Under the pieces are notes generated by a model, which worked only from the letters and a program-made list of their open reading frames with translations, was not told the origin of the DNA and did no database searches. Below are positions 3,835-63,715 of a stretch of 64,000 nucleotides of DNA, in pieces. Within the stretch, counting starts at the first letter, position 1. Every line of letters begins with the position of its first letter. The position numbers and the translations under genes are program-made. Location of the stretch: the NCBI RefSeq assembly GCF_056746865.1, contig NZ_CM163382.1. One strand, written 5' to 3'.

Positions 3835-3911
3835 GCGCCCTTAGCTCAGTTGGATAGAGCAACGACCTTCTAAGTCGTGGGCCGCAGGTTCGAATCCTGC
3901 AGGGCGCGCCA
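3835..3911 (+). tRNA. argU: tRNA-Arg (anticodon UCU)
   Basis: 77-nt cloverleaf GCGCCCTTAGCTCAGTTGGATAGAGC...TTCGAATCCTGCAGGGCGCGCCA with UCU anticodon; 3' 45 nt repeated at 50407-50451. Confidence 0.95.
3867..3911 (+). repeat. attL core (3' part of argU)
   Basis: 45-bp sequence cttctaagtcgtgggccgcaggttcgaatcctgcagggcgcgcca repeated at 50407-50451; integrase gene adjacent. Confidence 0.85.
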
Positions 3912-3926
3912 TTACAATTCAATCAG

Positions 3927-5090
3927 TTACGCCTTCTTTATATCCTCCATAATTCCAGAGTGGGACATATTTGGGACATTATCACCAAAAATGTCGTCTA
4001 TTTTCCTCGCATGCTCTGTCAAATGATTAGGCGCAAGGTGAGCATACCTACGAACCATTTCTATGGACTCCCATCCGCCCATTTCCTGAAGCACTGATAA
4101 TGGGACGCCTGACTGAATCAGCCAGCTTGCCCAGGTGTGTCTGAGGTCATGGAAACGGAAATCTTCAATTCCTGCACGACGACAAGCTGATAGCCATGAT
4201 GTCTTGCTGTCGATGCGCATCTTCCTGACCGCAGGCGTTGATGTTCCATCTGCTCGCTTAGCCGCCTTGGTATGTACAAACACCCATTTGTGATGCTTGC
4301 CTATTTGATCACGCAACACTTTACAGGCGGTATCGTTCAGCGCCACACCAATGGCGCGGTTTGATTTGCTCTCTTCTGGATTCACCCAGGCAACTCGTCG
4401 CTGCATGTCGATTTGTTGCCATTCCAGATTTATGATGTTCGACTTTCTCAGACCAGTTGCCAGCGCAAACTTGACGACAGATTTCAGTGGTTCGGGGCAC
4501 TCATCAATAAGGCGTTTTGCTTCCTCCTTTTCCAGCCATCTGACTCGCTTGTTTCTGACCGCTGGTATCTTGATGACAGGCGCTTTTTCCAGCCACTTCC
4601 AGTCGCGTTCTGCAGCACGGAGAATGGCCTTTATCATGGCAAGATGCTTTGCCTTTGTCTGAGTTGATACTGGCTTTGGTTCATAAACAGGCAGTTCTTT
4701 ACCTTTCCTGATGGCGGCCTGAACTTTCTGTTTCCATATTTCTTTCGTCTTTCTGTTATGCATTCTGCTTACAGCAGAGTAAATCTTTGCCTCCGAGATA
4801 TCTTTAAGCCTTATACCCTCAAAATGTTCAAGCCAGAACTCAATCCGGCTTTTATCTGAATCGAGAGATTTTTTATCAGCTTTTTCCTCAAGCCATCTTA
4901 GGCAGGCCTCTTCAAAAGTGACATCAGGTAAATCCCCTAGCTTTTCTACTCGCCAGAGTTCTGCTTTTCGCTTGTCGTGCAACTCCTGAGCTTGCCGCTT
5001 GTCCTTTGTGCCAAGAGATTCCTTAATTCGTTTCCCGCCCGGGAGCGAATACGAGGCATACCATATTTCATTTCTGCGGAAGAGTGACAT
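3927..5090 (-). CDS. intD: tyrosine recombinase / prophage integrase (argU-site type)
   Basis: 387-aa ORF with C-terminal catalytic region (HDLRHTWAS...RYAH) immediately next to tRNA attL. Confidence 0.9.
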
Positions 5091-16789: not shown

Positions 16790-17398
16790 ATGACTACTCA
16801 ATTAGCATTCCACAAAACGACGTTTACCCCGATTTGCCACAATAACAGAATTTGGCTTACTGCCACTGAAGTTGGTTTAGCACTGGAATATGCGGACGAT
16901 AAAGCAGTTCAGCGCATTTACTCTCGGCACTCAGATGAATTCACAGATATGATGACAAGGGTGGTCAAAGTGACCACCCCTCGTGGAATGCAGGAGTCTC
17001 GAGTATTTAGCCTTCGCGGAGCCCATTTGATCGCCATGTTTGCTCGTACTCCTGTGGCCAAAGAATTCCGCCGCTGGGTTCTGGATATTCTCGATCGAGA
17101 AGTTCAACAATCCCCAATCACAAAACAATTCACTGATAACGAACTTTGCACACTCGCCTGGTTATGGCGAGCAAGTGATACGATGTTAACCGCCTGCCAG
17201 AACGTTACGCCCCTTCTTCAGGTCGCAGAGCATCGCGAAGCAGGTAGATTCACTTCAATCGAACAAGAATATCCTCGGATACTCAACAGGGCGCGAGAAA
17301 TCCTTGCCAGAGAAACGGCGCATGTAAAATTCCAACCGTGGCAGGATGATAAGTGGAGTCGTGTGTTACCATATTTCCGTCAGAATCTGTTGCAATAA
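16790..17398 (+). CDS. Bro-N/antirepressor-like protein
   Basis: N-terminal pattern ...RIWLTATEVGLALEY...RWVLDIL resembles Bro-N/Ant-type phage domains. Confidence 0.55.
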   Translation: MTTQLAFHKTTFTPICHNNRIWLTATEVGLALEYADDKAVQRIYSRHSDEFTDMMTRVVKVTTPRGMQESRVFSLRGAHLIAMFARTPVAKEFRRWVLDILDREVQQSPITKQFTDNELCTLAWLWRASDTMLTACQNVTPLLQVAEHREAGRFTSIEQEYPRILNRAREILARETAHVKFQPWQDDKWSRVLPYFRQNLLQ

Positions 17399-17633
17399 AG
17401 TCACTAGTTAGAAATACTGCCAGCATTCTGCGATGACGGAAGTGCTGGCATTTTTTTTGGTAATGTGCGAGTCCATTTCATAAAATACGGGTACTGGAAC
17501 TGGACGATATAATCTAAAAGATACCATTATCAGTAGCATTAAAATCGCTATGTGCCGATACGGATATAAATTATATTGATTGTTCACATACCTTATTGGA
17601 TATTACTGAGGGGTGTTTATATAAGGTGTAACG

Positions 17634-18143
17634 ATGATGTGGAACTTTGACAGTGCCGACTTAAGTGCAATAGCAGCAGGCATTTCTGCGTTTGGCACAT
17701 TAGCCGCAGCGGGGTCGGCGCTTGCAAGTTGGTGCACGTCAAAAAAAGCGCTGCAGCTACAAAATAGAGTTTACCTTTATGAGTCTTTAAAGGCTTGCGC
17801 TGAGAGAGCCAATTCATCAGCTAAAGATAAGCGCGGATCTGAATGGAGCGTTAATGATGCAGCGGATATCATCAGGTGCCTAGTACGGGCGATGGAGCTC
17901 ATCAAGCAGGATAGCCAGCAGAAAGAAGGTAATCAGGCATTAATGTTGAAACAGTACTTTGTTAATCTGCTAATAATGGAACTGTACGAGGAAGTTCATA
18001 ACGGTGATGCGGCTGATTCTGTTTTTAAAAGTACGGAACCTACACAAGTACTTGATAACTTATGGAGCAAATGGCAGGAGGCTATAGCTTTTTTTGATAT
18101 TTGGAATTACCCAGTTGCGACTGAGGAAGACTTGGCAGACTAA
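17634..18143 (+). CDS. hypothetical protein with N-terminal hydrophobic segment
   Basis: 169-aa ORF within the repeat-flanked module. Confidence 0.5.
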   Translation: MMWNFDSADLSAIAAGISAFGTLAAAGSALASWCTSKKALQLQNRVYLYESLKACAERANSSAKDKRGSEWSVNDAADIIRCLVRAMELIKQDSQQKEGNQALMLKQYFVNLLIMELYEEVHNGDAADSVFKSTEPTQVLDNLWSKWQEAIAFFDIWNYPVATEEDLAD

Positions 18144-18220
18144 TTTTCAGCACATTTGATTTCCAATAATCAACCAGCCATAATCATGCCATTGGAGCTT
18201 GAACAACTCCGGTGACTTCT

Positions 18221-18304
18221 GCGCTAAACGGGGACGTTTATGCGCACATACAATCCAAACTCTCTTCTCCCTTCACAGATGCAGAGATGCACCTGCGATT
18301 TTTT
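18221..18304 (+). repeat. 84-bp direct repeat, copy 2
   Basis: Second copy of the repeat at 16287-16370, immediately upstream of ybcN. Confidence 0.85.
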
Positions 18305-18337
18305 GCATCCAGCGTTTGACCTCTGCGGAGGTGAAGC

Positions 18338-18793
18338 GTGAACCTCCCACAAGACGGCATCAAATTGCATCGTGGTAACTTCACCGCTATCGGCCAGCAG
18401 ATCCAGCCTTATCTGGAGGAAGGCAAATGCTTTCGCATGGTGCTTAAACCGTGGCGTGAGAAACGCAGTCTTTCCCAGAATGCACTCAGCCACATGTGGT
18501 ACAGCGAAATCAGTGAATACCTCATCAGCAGGGGTAAAACGTTCGCCACTCCAGCTTGGGTAAAAGATGCTCTCAAACACACATATCTCGGTTATGAAAC
18601 CAAAGACCTGGTTGATGTCGTAACCGGTGAGATCACCACTATCCAGTCGTTACGCCATACCTCCGATCTTGATACCGGAGAGATGTATATCTTCCTGTGT
18701 AAGGTTGAAGCCTGGGCGGTGAATATTGGCTGCCACCTGACTATTCCGCAGAGCTGCGAGTTCCAGCTGCTGCGCGACAAGCAGGAGGCGTAA
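18338..18793 (+). CDS. ybcN: YbcN-family nin-region protein
   Basis: GTG start after GGAGG; 151-aa product recognised as DLP12 YbcN. Confidence 0.85.
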
Positions 18794-18963
18794 TGGCTAC
18801 ACCGCTTATTCGTGTCATGAACGGACACATCTACAGAGTACCAAATCGTCGTAAGCGTAAACCTGAGCTGAAGCCATCCGAAATACCAACACTGCTCGGA
18901 TATACCGCCAGCTTGGTTGATAAAAAATGGTTGCGACTGGCAGCAAGGAGGAATCATGGCTGA
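18793..18963 (+). CDS. ninE: NinE-family protein
   Basis: 56-aa [19 protein letters not shown]..., below the ORF-track cutoff; start overlaps ybcN stop. Confidence 0.7.
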   Translation: MATPLIRVMNGHIYRVPNRRKRKPELKPSEIPTLLGYTASLVDKKWLRLAARRNHG

Positions 18964-19246
18964 TTTGAGAAAAGCAGCGCGTGGTCGGGAATGCCAGGTA
19001 AGAATCCCTGGCGTATGTAATGGCAATTCTGAGACGTCTGTACTGGCACATATCCGGCTGGCTGGATTGTGCGGTACCGGTATCAAACCGCCAGACCTGA
19101 TTGCCACCATTGCATGTTCTGCCTGCCACGACGAAATCGACCGCCGCACGCATTTTGTTGACGCTGGATATGCAAAAGAATGCGCGCTGGAAGGTATGGC
19201 GAGAACGCAGGTTATCTGGCTGAAAGAGAGGGTAATTAAGGCGTGA
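18956..19246 (+). CDS. ybcO: YbcO-family nin-region protein
   Basis: Start at [14 protein letters not shown]; Cys-rich product recognised as DLP12 YbcO. Confidence 0.8.
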
Positions 19247-19605
19247 ATACTTACCACATCACACTACCCTGGCCTCCGAGCAATAATCGCTATTACCGCC
19301 ATAATCGCGGGCGCACGCACGTCAGCGCAGAGGGGCAGGCATACCGCGATAACGTCGCCCGAATCATTAAAAACGCAATGCTGGATATCGGCCTGGCTAT
19401 GCCTGTGAAAATCCGCATTGAGTGCCACATGCCGGATCGCCGTCGCCGTGACCTGGATAATCTGCAAAAAGCCGCTTTTGACGCACTCACTAAAGCAGGT
19501 TTCTGGCTGGATGATGCTCAGGTCGTTGATTACCGCGTTGTGAAGATGCCTGTTACCAAAGGTGGGAGGCTGGAACTGACCATCACCGAAATGGGGAATG
19601 AATGA
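19243..19605 (+). CDS. rusA: Holliday-junction resolvase RusA
   Basis: 120-aa product recognised as RusA. Confidence 0.95.
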
Positions 19606-19742
19606 TGTTTGAGTTTAATATGGCAGAACTTCTTCGCCACCGCTGGGGGCGTCTGCGCTTATATCGTTTCCCCGGCTCTGTTTTGACCGATTACCGAATA
19701 CTGAAGAATTACGCCAAAACACTGACAGGAGCAGGAGTATGA
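19602..19742 (+). CDS. ylcG: YlcG-family small protein
   Basis: 46-aa [21 protein letters not shown]... overlapping rusA stop. Confidence 0.6.
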
Positions 19743-19827
19743 AGTCAGAGATAACAATCAACTAATACTGTTTTGTTGATTTTTGCTTGTAATTGGCGTT
19801 CTGGTCTGAGTTTTGTGGAGTAAGTTG

Positions 19828-20211
19828 ATGCGTGATATTCAGATGGTTCTTGAGCGTTGGGGAGCGTGGGCGGCTAATAATCATGAAGATGTGACCTGGT
19901 CGTCCATTGCCGCCGGTTTTAAGGGATTAATTCCTTCAAAAGTAAAATCTCGCCCGCAATGTTGTGACGATGACGCGATGATCATTTGCGGGTGCATGGC
20001 CCGTCTGAAAAAGAACAACAGCGATTTGCACGATTTATTAGTAGATTATTATGTAGTCGGTATGACATTCATGTCACTGGCAGGTAAGCATTGCTGCTCT
20101 GATGGTTATATCGGGAAAAGGTTACAAAAGGCTGAGGGCATAATTGAAGGGATGTTAATGGCATTAGATATCCGGTTAGAGATGGATATCGTTGTTAATA
20201 ACTCTAATTAA
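19828..20211 (+). CDS. quuD: late-gene antiterminator Q
   Basis: Start at [18 protein letters not shown]; recognised as DLP12-type Q; followed by hairpin-rich qut/terminator region. Confidence 0.85.
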
Positions 20212-20227
20212 TATGCCAATTGTTTAC

Positions 20228-20263
20228 TAAAAATTATTAAAAATGGGGCGTTGAGACGCCCCC
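20228..20263 (-). terminator. candidate rho-independent terminator (minus strand)
   Basis: Stem GGGGCGT-loop-ACGCCCC with a T-rich tract on the minus strand. Confidence 0.35.
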
Positions 20264-20350
20264 AAAAATAAAGGGTAATATATAACAGAAGGTTTATATA
20301 GTTAGAAGCAAGGTTGTGCTTCTAAAGGAAGTGGCTTGAGGGAGCCACTT

Positions 20351-20390
20351 ATATGTTGGGGAGGCAACGCCTCCCGCAACATATCTTTTT
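20351..20390 (+). terminator. tR'-like terminator downstream of Q/pR' (possibly bidirectional with the porin gene)
   Basis: Near-perfect palindrome ATATGTTGGGGAGGCAACGCCTCCCGCAACATAT followed by CTTTTT. Confidence 0.55.
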
Positions 20391-20400
20391 CGTAATCAGA

Positions 20401-21483
20401 TTAGAACTGGTAAACCAGACCTACAGCAACGATGTCATCAGTATCAATACCAGCTGTTTTGGTAAACTTACTATCGTCAATTAAGTTGATTTTGTAATCA
20501 ACAAAAGTGGACATGTTTTTATTAAAGTAGTAAGTAGCACCGACATCGACATACTTGACTAAGTCTCGGTCACCATGAACACCAAGGTCTTTACCTTTTG
20601 ACTGAAGGTAAGCAACAGATGGGCGCAGACCGAAGTCAAACTGATATTGTGCTACTGCTTCAAAGTTTTGTGCTTTGTTTGCAATATGGTTATTACCAAA
20701 AACGGTCATATTCTGAGTTTCAGAATATGTGGTAGCCAGATAGATATTGTTCGCATCATATTTCAGGCCTGCAGCCCATACTTCCGCATTTTTGCCGGAG
20801 GCATTGAATTTGCTCTTACCATAGGCGACCTGACCGTCAGTGCGATCTGATTTAGCATAGGTTGCACCCACGCCGAATCCTTCATACTCATAAGTAGTGG
20901 AGAAACCGAAACCATCACCATTGGCTTCAGTTACGTCAGTGCGGTCATTTTTACCCTGATACTGAGCAGCAAAGTTCAGGCCATCGACCAGACCAAAGAA
21001 GTCGTTGTTACGATAAGTTGCAACACCAGTAGTGCGACCAGTCATGAACACATCTGTTTGGGTCCAGGTATCACCACCGAATTCTGGCAGGACGTCAGTC
21101 CACGCACCGATGTCGTATGCTACACCGTAGTTACGGCCGTAATCGATTGAGCCGTAATCACCAAATTTCAGGCCTGCAAATGCAAGACGGGTTTTGTCTT
21201 TGGAAGAACCTTGAGATTCAGCGCGGTTGCCTTTGAATTCATATTCCCACTGACCGAAACCAGTCAGTTGATCGTTGATTTGGGTTTCACCTTTGAAGCC
21301 AAGACGGGCATAAGTAGTATCACCATCATCTGCATCATTAGAGGAGAAGTAGTGCTTAGCATTAACTTTCCCGTACAGATCCAGCTTGTTACTGTCTTTA
21401 TTATAAATTTCAGCTGCCTGAGCAGACATCGCCATCAGTACTGATGCAGCTACAGCAGAAATTGCCACTGTTAATTTTTTCAT
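20401..21483 (-). CDS. nmpC: general outer-membrane porin (NmpC/OmpD-like), prophage cargo
   Basis: 360-aa product with signal peptide and C-terminal ...VGLVYQF porin ending; located between Q and lysis genes on opposite strand. Confidence 0.85.
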
Positions 21484-40131: not shown

Positions 40132-43100
40132 ATGGGTAAAGGCAGCAGTAAGGGGCATACTCCGCGCGAAGCGAAGGACAACCTGAAGTCCACGCAGTTG
40201 CTGAGTGTGATCGATGCCATCAGCGAAGGGCCGGTTGAAGGTCCGGTGGATGGATTAAAAAGCGTGCTGCTGAACAGTACGCCAGTGCTGGACAGTGAGG
40301 GGAATACCAATATCTCCGGCGTCACGGTGGTGTTCCGGGCCGGTGAGCAGGAGCAGACACCGCCGGAGGGATTTGAATCCTCCGGCTCCGAGACGGTGCT
40401 GGGTACGGAAGTGAAATACGACACGCCGATCACCCGGACCATCACGTCGGCAAACATTGACCGACTGCGTTTTACCTTCGGCGTGCAGGCACTGGTGGAA
40501 ACCACCTCAAAGGGGGACAGGAATCCGTCGGAAGTCCGCCTGCTGGTTCAGATCCAGCGTAATGGTGGCTGGGTGACGGAAAAAGACATCACCATTAAGG
40601 GCAAAACCACCTCGCAGTATCTGGCCTCGGTGGTGGTGGGTAACCTGCCGCCGCGCCCGTTCAATATCCGGATGCGCAGGATGACGCCGGACAGCACCAC
40701 AGACCAGCTGCAGAACAAAACGCTCTGGTCGTCATACACCGAAATCATCGATGTGAAACAGGGCTACCCGAACACGGCACTGGTCGGCGTGCAGGTGGAT
40801 TCGGAGCAGTTCGGCAGCCAGCAGGTGAGCCGTAATTATCATCTGCGCGGGCGCATTCTGCAGGTGCCGTCGAACTATAACCCGCAGACGCGGCAATACA
40901 GCGGTATCTGGGACGGAACGTTTAAACCGGCATACAGCAACAACATGGCCTGGTGTCTGTGGGATATGCTGACCCATCCGCGCTACGGCATGGGGAAACG
41001 TCTTGGTGCGGCGGATGTGGATAAATGGGCGCTGTATGTCATCGGCCAGTACTGCGACCAGTCAGTGCCGGACGGCTTTGGCGGCACGGAGCCGCGCATC
41101 ACCTGTAATGCGTACCTGACCACACAGCGCAAGGCGTGGGATGTGCTCAGTGATTTCTGCTCGGCGATGCGCTGTATGCCGGTATGGAACGGGCAGACGC
41201 TGACGTTCGTGCAGGACCGACCATCAGATAAGGTGTGGACCTATAACCGCAGTAATGTGGTGATGCCGGATGATGGCGCGCCGTTCCGCTACAGCTTCAG
41301 CGCCCTGAAGGACCGCCATAATGCCGTTGAGGTGAACTGGATTGACCCGAATAACGGCTGGGAGACGGCGACAGAGCTTGTGGAGGACACGCAGGCCATT
41401 GCCCGTTACGGTCGTAACGTCACGAAGATGGATGCCTTTGGCTGTACCAGCCGGGGGCAGGCACATCGCGCCGGGCTGTGGCTGATTAAAACAGAACTGC
41501 TGGAAACGCAGACCGTGGACTTCAGCGTGGGCGCAGAAGGGCTTCGCCATGTGCCGGGCGATGTCATTGAAATCTGTGATGATGACTATGCCGGTATCAG
41601 CATCGGCGGGCGCGTGCTGGCGGTAAACAGCCAGACCCGGACGCTGACGCTCGACCGTGAAATCACGCTGCCATCCTCCGGTACCACGCTGATAAGCCTG
41701 GTTGACGGAAGTGGCAATCCGGTCAGCGTGGAGGTTCAGTCCGTCACCGACGGCGTGAAGGTGAAAGTGAGCCGTGTTCCTGACGGCGTTGCTGAATACA
41801 GCGTGTGGGGGCTGAAGCTGCCGACGCTGCGCCAGCGCCTGTTCCGCTGCGTGAGTATCCGTGAGAACGACGACGGCACGTATGCCATCACCGCCGTGCA
41901 GCATGTACCGGAAAAAGAAGCCATCGTGGATAACGGGGCGCACTTTGACGGCGACCAGAGCGGCACGGTGAATGGTGTCACGCCGCCAGCGGTGCAGCAC
42001 CTGACTGCCGAAGTCACCGCAGACAGCGGGGAATATCAGGTGCTGGCGCGCTGGGACACGCCGAAGGTGGTGAAGGGTGTGAGCTTTATGCTTCGCCTGA
42101 CCGTAACAGCGGATGACGGCAGTGAGCGGCTGGTCAGCACGGCCCGGACGATGGAAACCACTTACCGCTTCACACAACTGGCGCTGGGGAACTACAGGCT
42201 GACAGTCCGGGCAGTAAATGCGTGGGGGCAGCAGGGCGATCCGGCGTCGGTATCGTTCCGGATTGCCGCACCGGCAGCGCCGTCGCGGATTGAGCTGACG
42301 CCGGGCTATTTTCAGATAACCGCCACGCCGCATCTTGCGGTTTATGATCCGACGGTACAGTTTGAGTTCTGGTTCTCGGAAAAGCGGATTGCGGATATCA
42401 GGCAGGTTGAAACCACAGCACGCTATCTTGGCACGGCGCTGTACTGGATAGCCGCCAGTATCAATATCAAACCGGGCCATGATTATTACTTTTATATCCG
42501 CAGTGTGAACACCGTTGGCAAATCGGCATTCGTGGAGGCTGTCGGTCAGCCGAGTGATGATGCATCAGGCTATCTGGATTTTTTCAAAGGAGAAATCGGG
42601 AAAACACATCTGGCCCAGGAGCTGTGGACGCAGATTGATAACGGTCAGCTTGCGCCTGACCTGGCTGAAATCAGGACGTCCATTACGGATGTCAGCAATG
42701 AAATCACACAGACCGTCAATAAGAAACTGGAAGACCAGAGTGCAGCGATCCAGCAGATACAGAAAGTTCAGGTTGATACAAATAATAACCTGAACAGCAT
42801 GTGGGCTGTGAAGCTGCAGCAGATGCAGGACGGACGCCTTTATATTGCGGGTATCGGTGCCGGTATTGAGAACACCCCTGACGGCATGCAGAGTCAGGTG
42901 CTGCTGGCGGCAGACAGGATTGCGATGATTAATCCTGCGAATGGCAACACAAAACCGATGTTTGTTGGTCAGGGCGATCAGATATTCATGAACGACGTGT
43001 TCCTGAAACGCCTGACGGCCCCCACCATTACCAGCGGTGGAAATCCACCGGCATTTTCCCTGACACCGGACGGAAAGCTGACCGCTAAAAATGCGGATAT

Positions 43101-43629
43101 CAGTGGCAGTGTGAATGCGAACGCCGGGACGCTCAACAATGTCACGGTAAATGAAAACTGTACGATTAAGGGCATGCTGGAGGCGACTCAGGTCAGAGGT
43201 GACTTCGTTAAAGCTGTATCCAAATCATTCCCGAAACAGGCTGGTACGTGGGGTAATACGGAAACACCAAACGGGACGGTTACAGTCACCATCAGCGATG
43301 ATCATAACTTTGACCGTCAAATCATTATTCCGCCCATTATCTTTAACGGAATAGCGTATAGCGATCCGGGAAGTGGTAATAACCCGGGAGGTACAAGATA
43401 CACGGGTTATGGTTTTGAAGTTCGCAAAAACGGTGTATTAATCGCATCCAGAGAAACTAAAGGGGCCATTCCCGGTAGCTACAGTGCGGTTATTGATATG
43501 CCGAGTGGCAGGGGAAGCGTCACTCTGGAGTTTAAGATTTTCCAGAAAGGCAATCAGGGCGCAGGTAACATCACAGACTGTACGGTGATTGTGACCAAAA
43601 AAGCTGCTTCCGGTATCAGTATCCGTTGA
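40132..43629 (+). CDS. J: central tail fibre / host-specificity protein J
   Basis: 1165-aa product recognised as lambda gpJ-like over most of its length; C-terminal about 150 aa appears divergent. Confidence 0.9.
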
Positions 43630-43689
43630 AATATTTATAACCCCAATACGGGCGCCAGAAATGGCGCCTTTTTTATTTGTGGAGTGAGT

Positions 43690-52331: not shown

Positions 52332-55304
52332 TTACCAGTGCACTCCAATGGTGAGAAACGCGTTGTTGCGCTCTCCGTTACGTTGATTAATCGCCTTAAA
52401 GGTATGTTGATATTCGACGCCGAGACTGACTTTGTGCGGCCAGGCGTCGTAGTGCGTCTCGCCGGTCCAGATATTCCAGCGGACCCCGACACCGCCAAGC
52501 TGCGCGCCCTGAGTGCCTTTATCACGATAACCGTTGTCCTGAACGTGAGCGTAAGGCTCAATAGTCTGCCCGTTCGCCACCTTCTGATGCCAGCTGACGC
52601 GATAATCTGCCGTCCACGCCTGAATATCCTGACGGACATATTGCGCCGCATCGAGGTACAGGTTTTGGGCAAACCAGCCTGAACCGTTCGGGTGCCATTC
52701 GTCGCTGTATTTGCCGCCATTAAAGAATGAGGCGCTGGCGCGCAGCATGGTATCGGATGCGCCATTTTGCCCGTTCAGCGGCAACTGCTGTTCGACGGCG
52801 AGGAAAAAGATCTGATCGCGCAGCGGCTTCCAGCGCAGACCGGTGCCGGACATCGGATTTTTCACCGGCATCATCACCCCGTTTTCTCCGGTATCGGCAA
52901 AGACGCGGCTATAAACTGAGAGCAGGTCGCCTTCCAGCAGCATATTGCGTCCGATGCGGTACTCGGCTTCCAGTTGCCCATAGCTACGATAGCTTTTCCC
53001 TGGCGCTGCGCCGCCGACATTATTGTTAGCGGTACTCATTGCGCCGGAACGCAAGCCGATAGAAGAATCGAAACTGAACGTCCAGCGGCGACCGACCTCC
53101 TCATGCAGACGGCGGAAATTGAAGCGTTGCTGATTTTGCTCTGGGGTCAGTGGGGTTATCAGCGCCTGATTATCAATGTCATCAATCACCAGCCGGGCGT
53201 AGTGCTGCGTCGCAGGCATGTCATCCAGACGCTGGTTCACGTAGGCCAGTTGTCGGATAAGTGCCGGATCGTCCGGTAGCCCTTTATGCGCCTGTTCGAG
53301 CATTTCCCGCGACTGTGCGATATCACCGCTATCCCACAAGGCGTAACCAAGCGCTGCCTGGGTGTTGCTATTATTCGGTTCCAGTTCCAGCGCGGCGCGC
53401 AAATCACTCACCGCCGCCGGGACATTATGACGTTGGCGATAAATTGTCGCCCGCGCAACGTAAGCGTTGGCAGAAGGCGCAATATTGATTGAGCGCGTGA
53501 GATCGTTCAGTGCGAGTTCCGGCTGACCAGGAATGTAACGTTGCGCATGCAGCCACCAGTAGAGGGCATTGTTTCCCAGCCCACGTTGTTCTGCCTGCTG
53601 AAGCCAGCGATCGCGAGCCGCACCATTTCCTGCCGCCTGGGCGGTATTGGCAGCAGCAAGCAGATCCTCATTGCTCATGTCGTGAAGACTGATTTTCTGC
53701 CAGGCCGCCAGTGCGGTGGCGTAGTCCTCAACCTGATACGCCTGATAGGCTACCGCACGATGTTGCCAGGCGTTCGGTTGTCGTTGTTCGGCCTGAAGCC
53801 ATGCATACAACGCCACACCGGGTAGCGTGTCCCGATAACACTTTGCCAGACGGTTCCAGGCGGCAGCATCGTAGGAAGGCGACATATCGCCCAGCAAGCG
53901 AACTATTGCCGGGCAATTATCTGCAATACCCGGCAACTGACTTTGCCACTGACGTTGCTCCGCCAGCGGTAAGGGTTTCGATAAAATCGCCACCTTCGCC
54001 GGAGTTGCCAGGTAAGGATGACTTTCCAGCAGAGACGCCAGTCGCGCCATTAACGTCTGGCTGACACGCGCATCGCCCTGGAAAGGATAGCGTTGCAGCA
54101 ATAAATCGGCAGCTTCGCGTGACTGCTCGTTCTGCATCAGTTGCCAGGTCAGTTGATCCAGGCGGGTAAGATTTGCCGGTTCTTGCTGATACAGCAATCG
54201 TGCCAGACGCAGAGCTTCAGCCTTGTTACGGGTCGCCACGCTAACGGTATAACGCTCCTCAAGCATTTCATTGGCGGGGAGGGTGGCGAGCAGTTTTTGC
54301 GCTGCGTCGTACTGACCTTCTTTTAACAGCACCGGTAGCGTCGCGCCAACAACATACTGGCGGTTATCGGCAAACTGTACCGTATAATTCGCCAACGCCA
54401 GAACGGGGTTGGCGCTGTATTTAGATAACAGATAGAGCCAACTTTTCTCTTGTGCATCCGTGGTAAACAGCGGCTTATTTTCAATGAGATAACGCTGGAG
54501 GCGTGCTTTTTCGTCACGATAAGCCAGCGCGGTCGCGTAAGTAATATATGACTGCGGATCGGTGAAGATCCCCTGTGATTGCAGCGCCAGGATCCGATCG
54601 TCCAGCTGCCCGGCAAGAAGCACATCAAACCACTGGCGGCGTTCTGCCGCGCTTAATGTGTTCTGCTGGCGTGCTTCATTGTATAGCGTATCTGCCTGGG
54701 ACCATTGCTTCAGGTAGATTGCCCGTTGCAGCAGATCGGTTCGCAGCGTTTTTCCTTCCGGCGATGCAGCAAACGTCGCATCGTTCAGTTGCGCTCTGGC
54801 GACAGGTAATTGTGCCAGCCGCAGGGCATTCTGCCCAACTTCACTGCGACAACGCAGGGTCGGCGCAGCATCGCACGCTTTTTGCTGGGCAAGCAGTTCT
54901 TCAACAGTCGTAACGCTTTTCACTTCAACTGGAATAGCCGCCAGACTGCGCTCAAGTCGGGCATCTCCTGGGTGACGTTTCAGTTGATCCTCAAGCAACA
55001 GCCGCGCCCGGTCATCATGACCAAAATGGCGATAGGCTTCCGCAAGGTATAAAGTTAGCGGAATATTATCCGGCACCTGCTGGTGTATATATTCAAATTC
55101 GCGGATGGCGGTTGCTTCGTCGTTATTTTTCTGTGCCTTCAGCGCCTTGTCGAGACGGGGATAAATAACAAAATGGCGATAATCGCTCAGCCCCAGCTCT
55201 TCTGCGCTGGTGCCGATATTGTCTGCGAGTGCGCTGGTACTCAATAAAGACGTCAGCAGTAAACCAGACCATCCGATGACGCGATTAAGGTTATTCTCCT
55301 TCAT
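52332..55304 (-). CDS. nfrA: phage N4 adsorption outer-membrane protein A (TPR-rich)
   Basis: Start at MKENNLNRVIGWSGLLLTSLLS; about 990 aa; recognised as NfrA. Confidence 0.9.
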   Translation of the reverse strand: MKENNLNRVIGWSGLLLTSLLSTSALADNIGTSAEELGLSDYRHFVIYPRLDKALKAQKNNDEATAIREFEYIHQQVPDNIPLTLYLAEAYRHFGHDDRARLLLEDQLKRHPGDARLERSLAAIPVEVKSVTTVEELLAQQKACDAAPTLRCRSEVGQNALRLAQLPVARAQLNDATFAASPEGKTLRTDLLQRAIYLKQWSQADTLYNEARQQNTLSAAERRQWFDVLLAGQLDDRILALQSQGIFTDPQSYITYATALAYRDEKARLQRYLIENKPLFTTDAQEKSWLYLLSKYSANPVLALANYTVQFADNRQYVVGATLPVLLKEGQYDAAQKLLATLPANEMLEERYTVSVATRNKAEALRLARLLYQQEPANLTRLDQLTWQLMQNEQSREAADLLLQRYPFQGDARVSQTLMARLASLLESHPYLATPAKVAILSKPLPLAEQRQWQSQLPGIADNCPAIVRLLGDMSPSYDAAAWNRLAKCYRDTLPGVALYAWLQAEQRQPNAWQHRAVAYQAYQVEDYATALAAWQKISLHDMSNEDLLAAANTAQAAGNGAARDRWLQQAEQRGLGNNALYWWLHAQRYIPGQPELALNDLTRSINIAPSANAYVARATIYRQRHNVPAAVSDLRAALELEPNNSNTQAALGYALWDSGDIAQSREMLEQAHKGLPDDPALIRQLAYVNQRLDDMPATQHYARLVIDDIDNQALITPLTPEQNQQRFNFRRLHEEVGRRWTFSFDSSIGLRSGAMSTANNNVGGAAPGKSYRSYGQLEAEYRIGRNMLLEGDLLSVYSRVFADTGENGVMMPVKNPMSGTGLRWKPLRDQIFFLAVEQQLPLNGQNGASDTMLRASASFFNGGKYSDEWHPNGSGWFAQNLYLDAAQYVRQDIQAWTADYRVSWHQKVANGQTIEPYAHVQDNGYRDKGTQGAQLGGVGVRWNIWTGETHYDAWPHKVSLGVEYQHTFKAINQRNGERNNAFLTIGVHW

Positions 55305-57528
55305 TTTCGGACTCCAGTTGCGCAACCTGTTCTGTGTTTAAACCTGCTTTGAGTAATAGTGATTGCATCGAAACTTGTAATTCGCGTTGAATTGTCAGGA
55401 CGCGATCCAACGTTTCCTGGCTGATAACGCCTTCGGTGACCAAAAACTTGCCGAGCGGCAGAGAACTGCGTTCATGGCGCAATAACAACACGTTAATTGC
55501 TGAACGATTAATATGACCGAGCGTGGTCAGTATTTCGGCGAACAGGAACTGATGCGGCACATATTGCCGCCAGATTTCACCGGCCTGCTGTTCCGTGAGC
55601 CACTGATGCTGAACCGCATTGTACAACATTGCCCGCGGATCGTGACCGCGTCGGCGCGCATACCAGTGGCGTAACCCCGTGACAATTTGTCCCCGCAGAA
55701 CAATGACGTAACGCACTTTGCGTCCGACTTTACGCGTCAGGGCCGCCAGCGAAACCGGGTCAATACCATCTTCACTGCCGACAATTAACTCATCATTTTC
55801 CAGACGCAGCGGCAGCACTGCATAATGCAGCGCCACGGAGGCCGGCATTTCGGCAATCAGTGATGAAGGGATCTGCCAGGCGTCGATCGACTCCCACGCC
55901 ACGCCGTTTTGCTCTGCCAGCGCCTGTGCCAGCTGTTCGGCGCTAATCAGCCCCTGCATCAGCATTGAACCGCCCAGGCGTAGACCTTCGACGCGATTAC
56001 GCAGTGCTGTATCGAGTTGTTCTTCAGTGATGACCTGATTTTCCAGCAGGATTTGACCTAACGGACGCAACGAGCGGGTATCGCCAGTCACGCTGGGGAA
56101 GTCATGCGTTGTTTTATCCCACGCGACACGACGTGGATCGCCGTGTTGAAGTACCTGTTTTAACGCGCGCCAGTTGGCCATGAAGTTAATCAGGTTGCCC
56201 CAGAAAAGACGCAGGACAGATAGCAGCCCCTGCGTCAGGCCGTAGTAGCCAGTAACGAAAATCACCCGCTGCACGATGCGGTTAATCATCAAGCCAAAGT
56301 TTAGCCACAGCAGAGTCATTAACCATGCGCTGCCGCTGAAAATAGAAAGGAAATGCCAGGCATCGGGCCACAAACTTTCATACGCCAGCAACAGCAAAAG
56401 CTGGATCATCACCAGCATCGCGAGGAAGCTGACAAAGTTACTGATTGCCCCTTTGCGGTCGCGCCAGAGAAAGTAGTTCAGCGTCAGACTGGAGGTCCAT
56501 TTGTGGGTTTTAAAGCCCTGGAAAACAATGCCGATGATCCAGCGAGATTTTTGTCGAACCGCAGTCGAAAAGGTATCGGGGAAATATTCGCGCACGCAGA
56601 TCATGTTTGACGTCCGCGCGTGCTGTAAAAATTTACGCTGCTCGCGTTCTTTGGCTTCGTCCACCACCGGAAAACGGACAAAAATTTCCGTCATACCTTT
56701 TTCTTTCAGGCGGAAACCAATGTCGTAATCTTCAGTAAGACTCTGCACGTCGAAAGCAATACCATCACCGTCAGCTAACAGTGCGGTCACGGCGCGGCGG
56801 CTGAAACAAGTACCGACGCCTGCGCTGGGCACCTGTCCGGCGAGGGCTTCACGCACCGGAACATCTATGCCATGCAGTTCTGAAAACTCATCAATGTAAG
56901 TCATGCTGGTGAAGTGCGTCCATTCGCGTTCGAATGGGTATACCGGGATCTGAATCAGATCTTTACGCTCGACCAGATAGTTGAACAGACGCAATTCCAT
57001 CGGTGAAATTACGTCTTCGGCGTCATGCAGAATAAAACCAGCAAAAGCGAAATTGGCGCTACGCTCAAACTGGGTGATGGCGTCCAGCACGTTGTTCAGG
57101 CAGTCGGCTTTGCTGGTGGGGCCAGGACGCGCGCAGACTACCTTATGCACGTTTGGGAAGCGAGCGCACACTTCGTCAACATCACGCTGAGTATCGGGGT
57201 CGTTGGGGTAGGTGCCAACAAAGATATGATAGTTTTCATAGTCGAGCGTGGTCGCCGCCAGCTCGGCCATATTGCCGATGACGCCCGTTTCATTCCACGC
57301 CGGAACCATAATCGCTAACGGTTTTTCATCTGGTTTATACAGTTCGCGGTAACTCATTCGCGGGTAGCGGCGATAAACACTCAACTTGCGTTTAATGCGG
57401 CGTACCCAGTAGACGACATCAATAAAAAAATCGTCCAGCCCGCTGATGAACATGATGACCGCTAACGTTATCGCGATTACTTTTAAGCCGTAGAGCCAGG
57501 TAGCAAAAACATCAAGAAGCCAGTCCAC
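55291..57528 (-). CDS. nfrB: phage N4 adsorption inner-membrane glycosyltransferase-like protein B
   Basis: 745-aa product recognised as NfrB. Confidence 0.9.
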   Translation of the reverse strand: MDWLLDVFATWLYGLKVIAITLAVIMFISGLDDFFIDVVYWVRRIKRKLSVYRRYPRMSYRELYKPDEKPLAIMVPAWNETGVIGNMAELAATTLDYENYHIFVGTYPNDPDTQRDVDEVCARFPNVHKVVCARPGPTSKADCLNNVLDAITQFERSANFAFAGFILHDAEDVISPMELRLFNYLVERKDLIQIPVYPFEREWTHFTSMTYIDEFSELHGIDVPVREALAGQVPSAGVGTCFSRRAVTALLADGDGIAFDVQSLTEDYDIGFRLKEKGMTEIFVRFPVVDEAKEREQRKFLQHARTSNMICVREYFPDTFSTAVRQKSRWIIGIVFQGFKTHKWTSSLTLNYFLWRDRKGAISNFVSFLAMLVMIQLLLLLAYESLWPDAWHFLSIFSGSAWLMTLLWLNFGLMINRIVQRVIFVTGYYGLTQGLLSVLRLFWGNLINFMANWRALKQVLQHGDPRRVAWDKTTHDFPSVTGDTRSLRPLGQILLENQVITEEQLDTALRNRVEGLRLGGSMLMQGLISAEQLAQALAEQNGVAWESIDAWQIPSSLIAEMPASVALHYAVLPLRLENDELIVGSEDGIDPVSLAALTRKVGRKVRYVIVLRGQIVTGLRHWYARRRGHDPRAMLYNAVQHQWLTEQQAGEIWRQYVPHQFLFAEILTTLGHINRSAINVLLLRHERSSLPLGKFLVTEGVISQETLDRVLTIQRELQVSMQSLLLKAGLNTEQVAQLESENEGE

Positions 57529-60179: not shown

Positions 60180-61470
60180 AGGGAAAGATTACGAAAGCCC
60201 GCTCCCAGCAAGGACTGACGCCAGATAGTTTCTGTCCATGGCTGCTTTTCGCATCTTACGTCTTAACCCTGCCTTGAATACCTTATCATTCGTCAAAATA
60301 TTAATAGCGATGTGCCGTATCCCTGAAAATAATTCTGCGGCGTTTCCTCTTCTTATTTTGCAGTCGTCTTCATTCATTACCACGTCCAGACGCCAGTGCA
60401 GCTTATTCTCCACGTGCCAGCGGTTTCGGATTGCTGTGGCGAACTTCTCTGCGGTTAAATCAGCAGAACTGATATAATATCTGACCGTCATTTCTGGCTC
60501 TTTCTTTTGTTCTGCTATTATTGACCGAAAGGAGACTGCCACGCATAATTTCTTCAGACCTTTCCATTCAAACGTGAAATCAATAAGTTCATCAGGGACA
60601 TCGCAAACAATGTGAAGACGGATTTCTTCTCTGCCGTGACTCTTTTCACTAATTGCGTAACTGTCATGCTCTGGATTATTTAATTCTTTCAGTGGGAATT
60701 TTTCCTCAAAGGCTTTATTAAGCCGCCCCTGATTTCCTTTTACAGCGAATAAATAATCACCGCCCTGTTTTTGTATCTTCTCTGCAATATCTTTCTGGCA
60801 ACCCATCGCATCAGTTGTGATGATTTTTCCTTTAATATCCAGCATGTTAAGAAGTTCAGGGATAGCTGTAATCTCATTTGATTTCTCATCCGTCCTGATC
60901 TGTCCGATGACCAGACTGTGCATTGTTGAGAACGCACTAATGACATGAATCGCTCCCTTGCGGCGACTCTTGTCATAAGAATGCCGGAGTGTTTTTCCAT
61001 CAATTGCGATGACGTCTTTATCATCTGAAGAATGGCAGTCACGCATCCAGTTAATAAAGCACTCGTGAAATTTTGCAGGACTGATACAGGATACAACTCT
61101 GGCAATAGTATCGTGAACAGGAATACCATTATCAAAATCACCATATTGCTTCAAAAAATCGAGATGTGTTTCCCCAAAATCCTCTATATCTTCCCAGCCT
61201 TCTGCACCCGAAATAACGGCACAAATAGTCAACAGTAGAATATCCGATAATTTATGTTCCACTTTCCAGGCTTGTCTGTAATCGGGGATAATAGAAATAT
61301 GTTCCATCAATTTTTTAAGTTCCATTTTGTTCTCCTTAATTATGTAAGGAGTATTTGATCATGTATAAGCAATAAAAAACAGCTTCAGGTAATGAGGAAT
61401 ATCTCAATTTGTAAACATAAAATGCGAATTATTTAGTACAAAAAGTGTACTTCTGATGATCTTTCCCTGG
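60180..61470 (-). mobile_element. H-repeat (Rhs-associated ISAs1-family) element, copy 1
   Basis: About 1.29 kb repeated at 62331-63620 with high identity; contains intact 378-aa transposase ORF. Confidence 0.8.
60189..61325 (-). CDS. H-repeat-associated ISAs1-family transposase
   Basis: 378-aa product recognised as YhhI/YdcC/YbfD-type H-rpt protein. Confidence 0.85.
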
Positions 61471-62152: not shown

Positions 62153-62339
62153 AATTACCCCGTTAATACATTAATTCCTAAATATTTGAAAATTTCCTGA
62201 CAGTTTCTACAGTTCGGAAAAGCACTTCCATCACCAGTATGAACTGTAGCCATTTCCAAATCATGCAACGATGAATTATCTTTGAGAGCTTTATTCACCG
62301 CATCTATTTCAGCACAATTATTAACAGCCCAAGGCAAGA

Positions 62340-63476
62340 TTACGAAAGCCCGCACCCCGCAAGGACTGCCGCCAGGTAGTTTCTGTCCATGGCTGCTTTT
62401 CGCATCTTACGTCTTAACCCTGCCTTGAATACCTTATCATTCGTTAAAATATTAATAGCGATGTGCCGTATCCCTGAAAATAATTCTGCGGCGTTTCCTC
62501 TTCTTATTTTGCAGTCGTCTTCATTCATTACCACGTCCAGACGCCAGTGCAGCTTATTCTCCACGTGCCAGTGGTTTCGGATTGCTGTGGCGAACTTCTC
62601 TGCGGTTAAATCAGCAGAACTGATATAATATCTGACCGTCATTTCTGGCTCTTTCTTTTGTTCTGCTATTATTGACCGAAAGGAGACTGCCACGCATAAT
62701 TTCTTCAGACCTTTCCATTCAAACGTGAAATCAATAAGTTCATCAGGGACATCGCAAACAATGTGAAGACGGATTTCTTCTCTGCCGTGACTCTTTTCAC
62801 TCATTGCGTAACTGTTATGCTCTGGATTATTTAATTCTTTCAGTGGGAATTTTTCCTCGAAGGCTTTATTTAGCCGCCCCTGGTTTCTTTTTACAGCGAA
62901 TAAATAATCACCGCCCTGTTTTTGTATCTTCTCTGCAATATCTTTCTGGCAACCCATCGTATCAGTTGTGATGATTTTTCCTTTAATATCCAGCATGTTA
63001 AGAAGTTATGGGATAGCTGTAATCTCATTAGATTTCTCATCCGTCTTGATCTGTCCGATGACCAGACTGTGCATTGTTGAGAACGCACTAATGACATGAA
63101 TCGCTCCCCTGCGGCGACTCTTGTCATAATAGTGCCGGAGCGTTTTTCCATCAATTGCGATGACGTCTTTATCATCTGAAGTATGGCAATCTCGCATCCA
63201 GTTAATAAAGCACTCGTGAAATTTTGCAGGACTGATACAGGATACAACTCTGGCAATGGTATCGTGGACAGGCATACCATTTTCAAAATCACCATATTGC
63301 TTCAAAAAATCGATATGTGTTTCACCAAAATCCTCTATATCTTCCCAACCTTCTGCACCCGAAATAACGGCACAAATAGTCAACAGTAGAATATCCGATA
63401 ATTTATGTTCCACTTTCCAGGCTTGTCTGTAATCGGGGGTAATAGAAATATGTTCCATCAATTTTTTAAGTTCCAT
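62340..63476 (-). pseudogene. H-repeat transposase, copy 2, interrupted by an in-frame stop
   Basis: Two ORFs (63006-63476 and 62340-62996) together colinear with the intact copy; stop where copy 1 reads ELLN. Confidence 0.8.
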
Positions 63477-63715
63477 TTTTTTCTCCTTAATTATGTAAGG
63501 AGTATTTGATCATGTATAAGCAATAAAAAACAGCTTCAGGTAATGAGGAATATCTCAATTTTTAAACATAAAATGCGAATTATTTAGTACAAAAAAGCAG
63601 CGTTACGTGATCTTTCCCTGACAGCAAACTGAATACAGAAACATATTGGTTGGAAATGCTATTTGACAGCAGATCCCGGTGGGCCTGCCACCATCTCTTC
63701 ACAAGCTTATGCTTA

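Follow-up and report, generated by a model that had tools for sequence, protein, structure and literature searches.

Which receptor on the Escherichia coli surface would be recognized by a tail tip that resembles that of lambda everywhere but at its far end? This question is raised by gene J, which encodes the central tail fiber (tip attachment) protein of a lambdoid prophage in a 64,000-nucleotide (nt) stretch of contig NZ_CM163382.1 (NCBI RefSeq assembly GCF_056746865.1), hereafter the window. A preliminary description of this DNA, made from the letters alone, had proposed that J is lambda-like over most of its length but divergent at the C-terminus, that its 1165 amino acids (aa) exceed lambda J by about 33, and that the divergent part comprises roughly the last 150 residues, from position 43100 onward, implying a receptor other than LamB. 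Our comparative analysis showed that this J is a modular mosaic, composed of a lambda-identical hub and FNIII body, a longer shaft variant, a conserved junction of about 145 nt, together with a receptor-binding domain, or RBD, of the phage 434 type. By homology to 434, the terminal receptor is probably OmpC and not LamB.

The divergence of the J C-terminus from lambda is confirmed by a global pairwise alignment. Identity to lambda J is 98.2% over aa 1-800, falls to 42% over aa 816-900, where a 28-aa insertion occurs, rises to 67% (aa 901-960) and 92% (aa 961-1008), and drops to 40% over aa 1021-1165 (54/134 identities, 17 gap columns), a segment that nevertheless remains alignable end to end. 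A mismatch of 1.8% over 800 aa against one of about 60% over 145 aa lies far beyond chance, and the C-terminal region does not align with lambda at high identity. In the nucleotide sequence, the departure from lambda restarts at 43123/43136, directly after a 69-bp exact match (43054-43122), so that the onset first proposed was accurate to within about 30 nt. A second divergent block, at aa ~816-960, is absent from the preliminary description. Lambda J (NC_001416 15505-18903) has 1132 aa, and the window protein is therefore longer by exactly 33, as had been estimated; the loose link drawn between these extra residues and the C-terminus was mostly wrong, since the shaft accounts for 28 of them, leaving the RBD a net gain of five.

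As a whole, the protein is a complete lambda-type J. BLASTP aligned it with lambda J over its full length at 83% identity, and Pfam returned FNIII-A_GpJ, Phage-tail_3, Ig_J, Ig_J_second, Phage_Tail_Tip, and Ig_GpJ_C, each above its curated cut-off. The full domain series is thus present, from the hub through two FNIII/Ig domains and the tail-tip fiber (Phage_Tail_Tip, aa 872-1000) to the C-terminal Ig-like RBD (Ig_GpJ_C, aa 1029-1164, with a score of 90 bits where 26 would suffice). Lambda J shares the family, domain order, and fold, but its shaft is 28 aa shorter. The gene also occupies the position expected of J in the tail cluster, which runs M, L, K, I, J, and then the side tail fiber gene, an order likewise annotated in the 99.7%-identical prophage of E. 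coli 118UI. Two small open reading frames (ORFs) inside J, at 42978-43175 (-) and 43151-43354 (+), were rejected as out-of-frame artefacts.

The modules of this mosaic are delimited in Table 1. The hub/FNIII module ends in a 107-bp exact match to lambda (42433-42539). Over the shaft module that follows, the nucleotide sequences of lambda and 434 agree at 96-100%, whereas the window departs from both. The shaft insertion comprises 84 nt (28 aa), split between 42636-42698 and 42734-42754, and falls at lambda aa 835-840; judged by the published lambda J structures (PMC11101478), it would sit inside the alpha-helical shaft and would lengthen the shaft helix bundle by four heptads. Conceivably, this lengthening could adjust the fiber's trigger or its reach. 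The same long-shaft module is carried by phages cdtI and phi458, at 96.9% identity. The sequence then returns to lambda at the junction, through exact runs at 42979-43007 and 43009-43037 and the 69-bp match mentioned above, and the junction columns are invariant in the 10 J variants that were aligned. The junction coincides with lambda aa 964, the swap point used for the functional gpJ chimeras A8 and 1A2, where exchange of the C-terminus has been shown by experiment to switch lambda from LamB to OmpC (PMC11338833). Because the two places are the same, the junction is likely a natural recombination joint.

Beyond the junction, both sequence comparison and structural modeling argue that the C-terminus is a bona fide J receptor-binding fold (Ig_GpJ_C) and not a foreign domain. 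The last 209 aa match, over the whole domain, the PDB entries 8xcj, 8xck, and 8iyk of lambda J and 9wca and 9wcb of A8 gpJ 713, with E values of 1e-54 to 1e-63 (phmmer 3e-63 for 9wca and 2e-55 for 8xcj); A8 gpJ is the best sequence match among the solved structures. An AlphaFold2 (AF2) model of the RBD is all-beta, with a predicted local distance difference test (pLDDT) score of 70-96, and its top Foldseek matches are 8xcj, 8xck, 9wca, and 9wcb (E 5e-19 to 5e-16), with a TM-score of 0.71 for the RBD model normalized to 9wcb_F. Only the RBD part of the model was used, the monomer being poorly modeled over the beta-prism (residues 1-67 of the modeled segment, pLDDT <50), as expected of a trimeric fiber. 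Entry 8xcj is the lambda gpJ-LamB complex, while 9wcb is the A8 gpJ-OmpC complex. From the strand order of the AF2 model, four putative receptor-facing loops can be placed at aa ~1032-1043, 1073-1087, 1109-1114, and 1140-1149, with lambda counterparts at aa 1004-1013, 1043-1051, 1073-1077, and 1104-1116. Their positions agree with the "four bottom loops L1-L4" of the lambda J RBD (PMC11101478) and with four stretches of the J panel alignment that are hypervariable and carry indels.

Among the J alleles compared, the one to which this domain belongs is that of phage 434. Over 149 aa and with zero gaps, the window RBD is 94.0% identical to wild-type 434 and 93.3% identical to 434B, and the window and 434 domains share their length, indel pattern, and C-terminal sequence. 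Identity to lambda, the LamB binder, is 38-40% with five loop indels, and comparably low values were obtained for phage 21 (40%), the OmpC binders phi330 and A8 (about 42%), the VT1-Sakai/1A2 type, also OmpC-binding (41%), and Fels-1 (46%). The A8/phi330 and 1A2/VT1-Sakai types share the Ig_GpJ_C fold and the junction with the window, but they are distinct allele classes: with RBD identities of 41-44% (PMC11338833 supplementary DNA; PDB 9wca), the engineered OmpC binders gpJ A8 and 1A2 were rejected as the identity of this tip. Phage 434 J resembles the window J in its RBD and in its hub/FNIII body, and differs in being 1137 aa long with a lambda-type shaft where the window has a different shaft that is 28 aa longer.

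The classical genetics of 434 is consistent with this assignment. Lambda and 434 J agree at 96-100% up to their final ~500 nt, and the J of the hybrid lambda h434 imm21 follows lambda until about nt 2150 and 434 thereafter. Since the hybrid switches there and the two parents are substantially different nowhere but in those ~500 nt, 434 host range maps to the C-terminal domain, and the classical 434 host-range allele would be essentially the domain found here.

Within the 434 family, 15 of the 149 RBD positions vary among nine members, in shuffled combinations. The window haplotype carries S1032/Q1036/A1037, S1077, R1127, and I1136/Q1138/G1143; PhiR34_1 and ASU11 combine 434 residues at aa 1032, 1036, 1037, and 1077 with window residues at 1136, 1138, and 1143, and Stx2c_2409 shows the opposite combination. 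Given these shuffled intermediates, 434 falls within the polymorphism of the family and not apart from it. The variable sites tend toward the putative loops, although this enrichment is weak, partly post hoc, and only suggestive: with the loops as initially drawn, 7/15 variable sites fell in 43/149 residues, and after two loops were widened post hoc, 10/15 did so (P = 0.007). As a separate observation, 434B, a laboratory clear-plaque derivative, differs from wild-type 434 by two RBD changes, D to N and R to W, at the window-equivalent aa 1078 and 1143. The two sites belong to putative loops 2 and 4. Stx2c_2409 is a natural carrier of the Trp variant, and the two changes could represent host-range adaptation during laboratory passage.

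The receptor of phage 434 is reportedly OmpC (protein Ib), a result attributed to Hantke in 1978. More recent work places OmpC as the target of the 434 central fiber (PMC12502783), and OmpC use has been shown experimentally for the A8/phi330 and 1A2/VT1-Sakai gpJ variants (PMC12502783, PMC11338833). K-12 hosts support plaque formation by phages with the window-type allele, MG1655 in the case of PhiR34_1 and MC1061 in that of phi458. An identity of 93-94% to 434 is strong evidence for OmpC, short of proof, and we consider OmpC the probable terminal receptor of this J. The suggestion that the divergent tip implies a receptor other than LamB is thereby supported, through the 434-type RBD and the use of OmpC by 434.

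Several considerations weigh against this assignment. E. coli OmpC is highly polymorphic, and allele specificity may differ. The nine substitutions that separate the window RBD from that of 434 cluster in large part in or beside the putative receptor-facing loops. A literature search retrieved no published receptor for cdtI, phi458, ev099, Ayreon, the Stx phages with this J, mEp332, the PhiR ECOR phages, or the ev/mEp460 recombinants, and the literature on cdtI, phi458, mEp332, and the PhiR phages gave no adsorption or knockout data for the exact haplotype. In addition, phage 21 natively uses LamB, although a single J mutation adds OmpC and a few more add OmpF (PMC11336670), and its RBD is 81% identical to those of the OmpC binders A8 and phi330; because a LamB-using phage is that close to OmpC-binding domains, the receptor does not follow from percent identity alone. 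Phage 21 itself was rejected as an OmpC phage, its native receptor being LamB (PMC11336670). The clustering of the nine substitutions and the behavior of phage 21, together with the free recombination of polymorphic sites in the 434 family, would favor a haplotype that retains a 434-family RBD and yet, by virtue of its loop substitutions, uses a different trimeric porin or one more besides (such as OmpF, LamB, or PhoE), or recognizes no more than some of the OmpC alleles. However, all nine differences are polymorphisms found in other members of the family, intermediates link the window to 434, there are zero loop indels, and an identity of 93-94% is well above the 81% of the phage 21 example, which makes such a switch unlikely while leaving it some weight. 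It is similarly doubtful, though conceivable, that the long-shaft haplotype recognizes a set of OmpC alleles other than that of 434, or another porin, and that its freely recombining loop polymorphisms reflect an ongoing arms race with polymorphic OmpC.

Two further explanations of the divergent tip fare considerably worse. The C-terminus might have decayed to a non-functional state in a cryptic prophage, an idea encouraged by the location at the argU site, held in K-12 by the defective DLP12, and by the near-identical J of strain 118UI (17034-20530 of its sequence), which is annotated as frameshifted. Here, the 1165-aa ORF is intact, and the 3498-nt J genes of cdtI and PhiR34_1 equal it in length; many genomes carry the last 530 nt without a single difference, no Pfam domain falls below its cut-off, and the RBD model is confident, so that decay appears very improbable. 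Even less credible is an unrelated domain directed not to a porin but, for instance, to FhuA, as is the case in phi80, N15, and HK022. Many lambdoid phages depend on FhuA, which is the sole reason for considering this explanation, and no support for it was found. Homology refutes it, through the end-to-end alignment with the lambda and A8 RBDs (E 1e-55 to 1e-63), the Ig_GpJ_C match, and the shared fold; moreover, neither cor nor a separate receptor-binding protein gene follows J, the side tail fiber gene (stf) beginning 55 nt downstream.

With OmpC as the favored receptor, a mechanism can be proposed from the lambda J structures (PMC11101478), taking the lambda and A8 gpJ-OmpC complexes as models. 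At the end of the fiber, the variable bottom loops of three Ig-like RBD copies would enter the extracellular face of a trimeric porin, which, from the homology to 434, would most likely be OmpC rather than LamB. Binding would spread the bases of the RBDs, twist the beta-prism, flip the alpha-helical shaft, and open the tail. By analogy, such a conformational trigger may also operate in the window J.

Table 1. Gene J, its modules, and the adjoining downstream features (positions in the window; GC, guanine-cytosine content)
Feature	Coordinates	Strand	Observations
Gene J (central tail fiber/tip attachment protein)	40132..43629	+	Intact ORF, 1165 aa; stop TGA 43627-43629
Hub and two FNIII/Ig domains (aa 1 to ~803)	40132..42539	+	91-100% nt identity to lambda and to 434 in 100-nt windows; GC 59.0%
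Divergent shaft module (aa ~804-949: alpha-helical shaft with upper beta-prism)	42540..42978	+	49-72% nt identity to lambda and 434; GC 51%
Conserved junction (aa ~950-997)	42979..43122	+	Nearly identical to lambda; GC 54% (over 42932-43131)
434-type receptor-binding domain, Ig-like beta-sandwich	43123..43626	+	89-92% nt identity to 434 (43132-43629), 48-63% to lambda; GC 46.8%
Terminator-like hairpin and T-run after J stop	43650..43679 (hairpin 43650-43669)	+	Consensus scan: one site vs 0.4 expected from shuffles
Side tail fiber gene (stf-like), 791 aa	43684..46059	+	Pfam phage_tail_N at aa 3-133, E 2e-67

Downstream of J, terminators are annotated in 434 and phage 21 at the place equivalent to that of the hairpin in Table 1. 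In lambda, 434, phi330, VT1-Sakai, Stx1_699, PhiR49_2, and PhiR5_1, J is directly followed by lom (Ail/PagC/OmpX-like), so that in 434 this gene stands between J and stf; in the window, 43630-43690 is without lom, and J and stf are separated by the terminator-like hairpin alone. The 5' end of the stf-like gene has 83% nt identity to lambda stf, and its true start is likely the ATG at 43690. The middle of the protein is a long, repetitive region rich in Ala, Ser, Thr, and Lys, with repeats of the form ...AAKTSETNAK(S/A)SQTAAKTSETNAKASETAAKNSQ... and an AT skew of up to 0.64 at 44000-44750. The C-terminal region gives a weak Laminin_G_3/concanavalin-A-like match, which suggests a glycan-binding tip. 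Three small ORFs follow at 46056-47355, encoding 93 aa (without a family match), 234 aa, and 97 aa (hydrophobic). The 234-aa ORF has a Peptidase_S74 intramolecular-chaperone domain and is annotated in 118UI as 'tail fiber domain-containing protein'; together, the three may represent a second short fiber or spike and an accessory membrane protein.

The prophage adjoins tRNA-Arg(tct) (argU) at 3835-3911, with an integrase-sized ORF (3927-5090, -) beside the tRNA. On the right, immediately after the final phage ORFs and ahead of appY, GC drops sharply to 25-28% at 47450-47900, likely at or near the prophage boundary. The flank beyond (48031-57528) carries appY, ompT, envY, ybcH, nfrA, and nfrB, named from the annotation of 118UI, to which 39827-63629 of the window is 99.7% identical. 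The integration site is that of DLP12 in K-12, and an apparently complete lambdoid prophage of ~44 kb occupies it here. On the chromosomal side, two ISAs1-like (ISEc1) transposase regions were also observed (60189-61325 and 62330-63620), ~97% identical to each other's 118UI counterparts.

The configuration described here is widespread. With the final 149 residues of J as tblastn query, 74 phage records matched at an identity of at least 90%, the next best falling below 60% (44%). Records with the window-type RBD include cdtI, phi458, ev099, Ayreon, PhiR26_1, PhiR34_1, mEp332, 2851, and phiSTEC1575-Stx2k, as well as many Stx1a, Stx2a, and Stx2c phages. Of these, cdtI, phi458, Ayreon, PhiR34_1, 2851, and several of the Stx phages are plaque formers. 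Essentially the same J, with no difference of note, is found in cdtI, phi458, ev099, Ayreon, several Stx1a/Stx2a/Stx2c phages, and E. coli prophages; the cdtI-type J genes are 95.5-96.9% identical to the window over 42400-43677, long shaft included, and 98-99% identical in the RBD at the amino acid level. The 530-nt region at 43100-43629 was found, at a coverage of at least 80%, in 2089/5426 complete E. coli genomes, with many copies identical throughout, while the equivalent lambda segment occurs in 96/5426, largely DE3 laboratory strains. A long shaft with a 434-type tip is the standard, and commonest, natural configuration of this allele. The allele, the modular exchange at the junction, and the use of OmpC by 434 are already known, and current understanding is unchanged.

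The value of the analysis lies in annotation: the terminal receptor of this prophage is to be predicted as OmpC-type, 434-like, and not as LamB. This prediction affects host-range prediction, the reading of superinfection and of receptor loss, and the choice of gpJ module for engineered lambda particles. In natural E. coli, the LamB-binding tip of lambda is a rare allele, whereas the 434 type is among the commonest.

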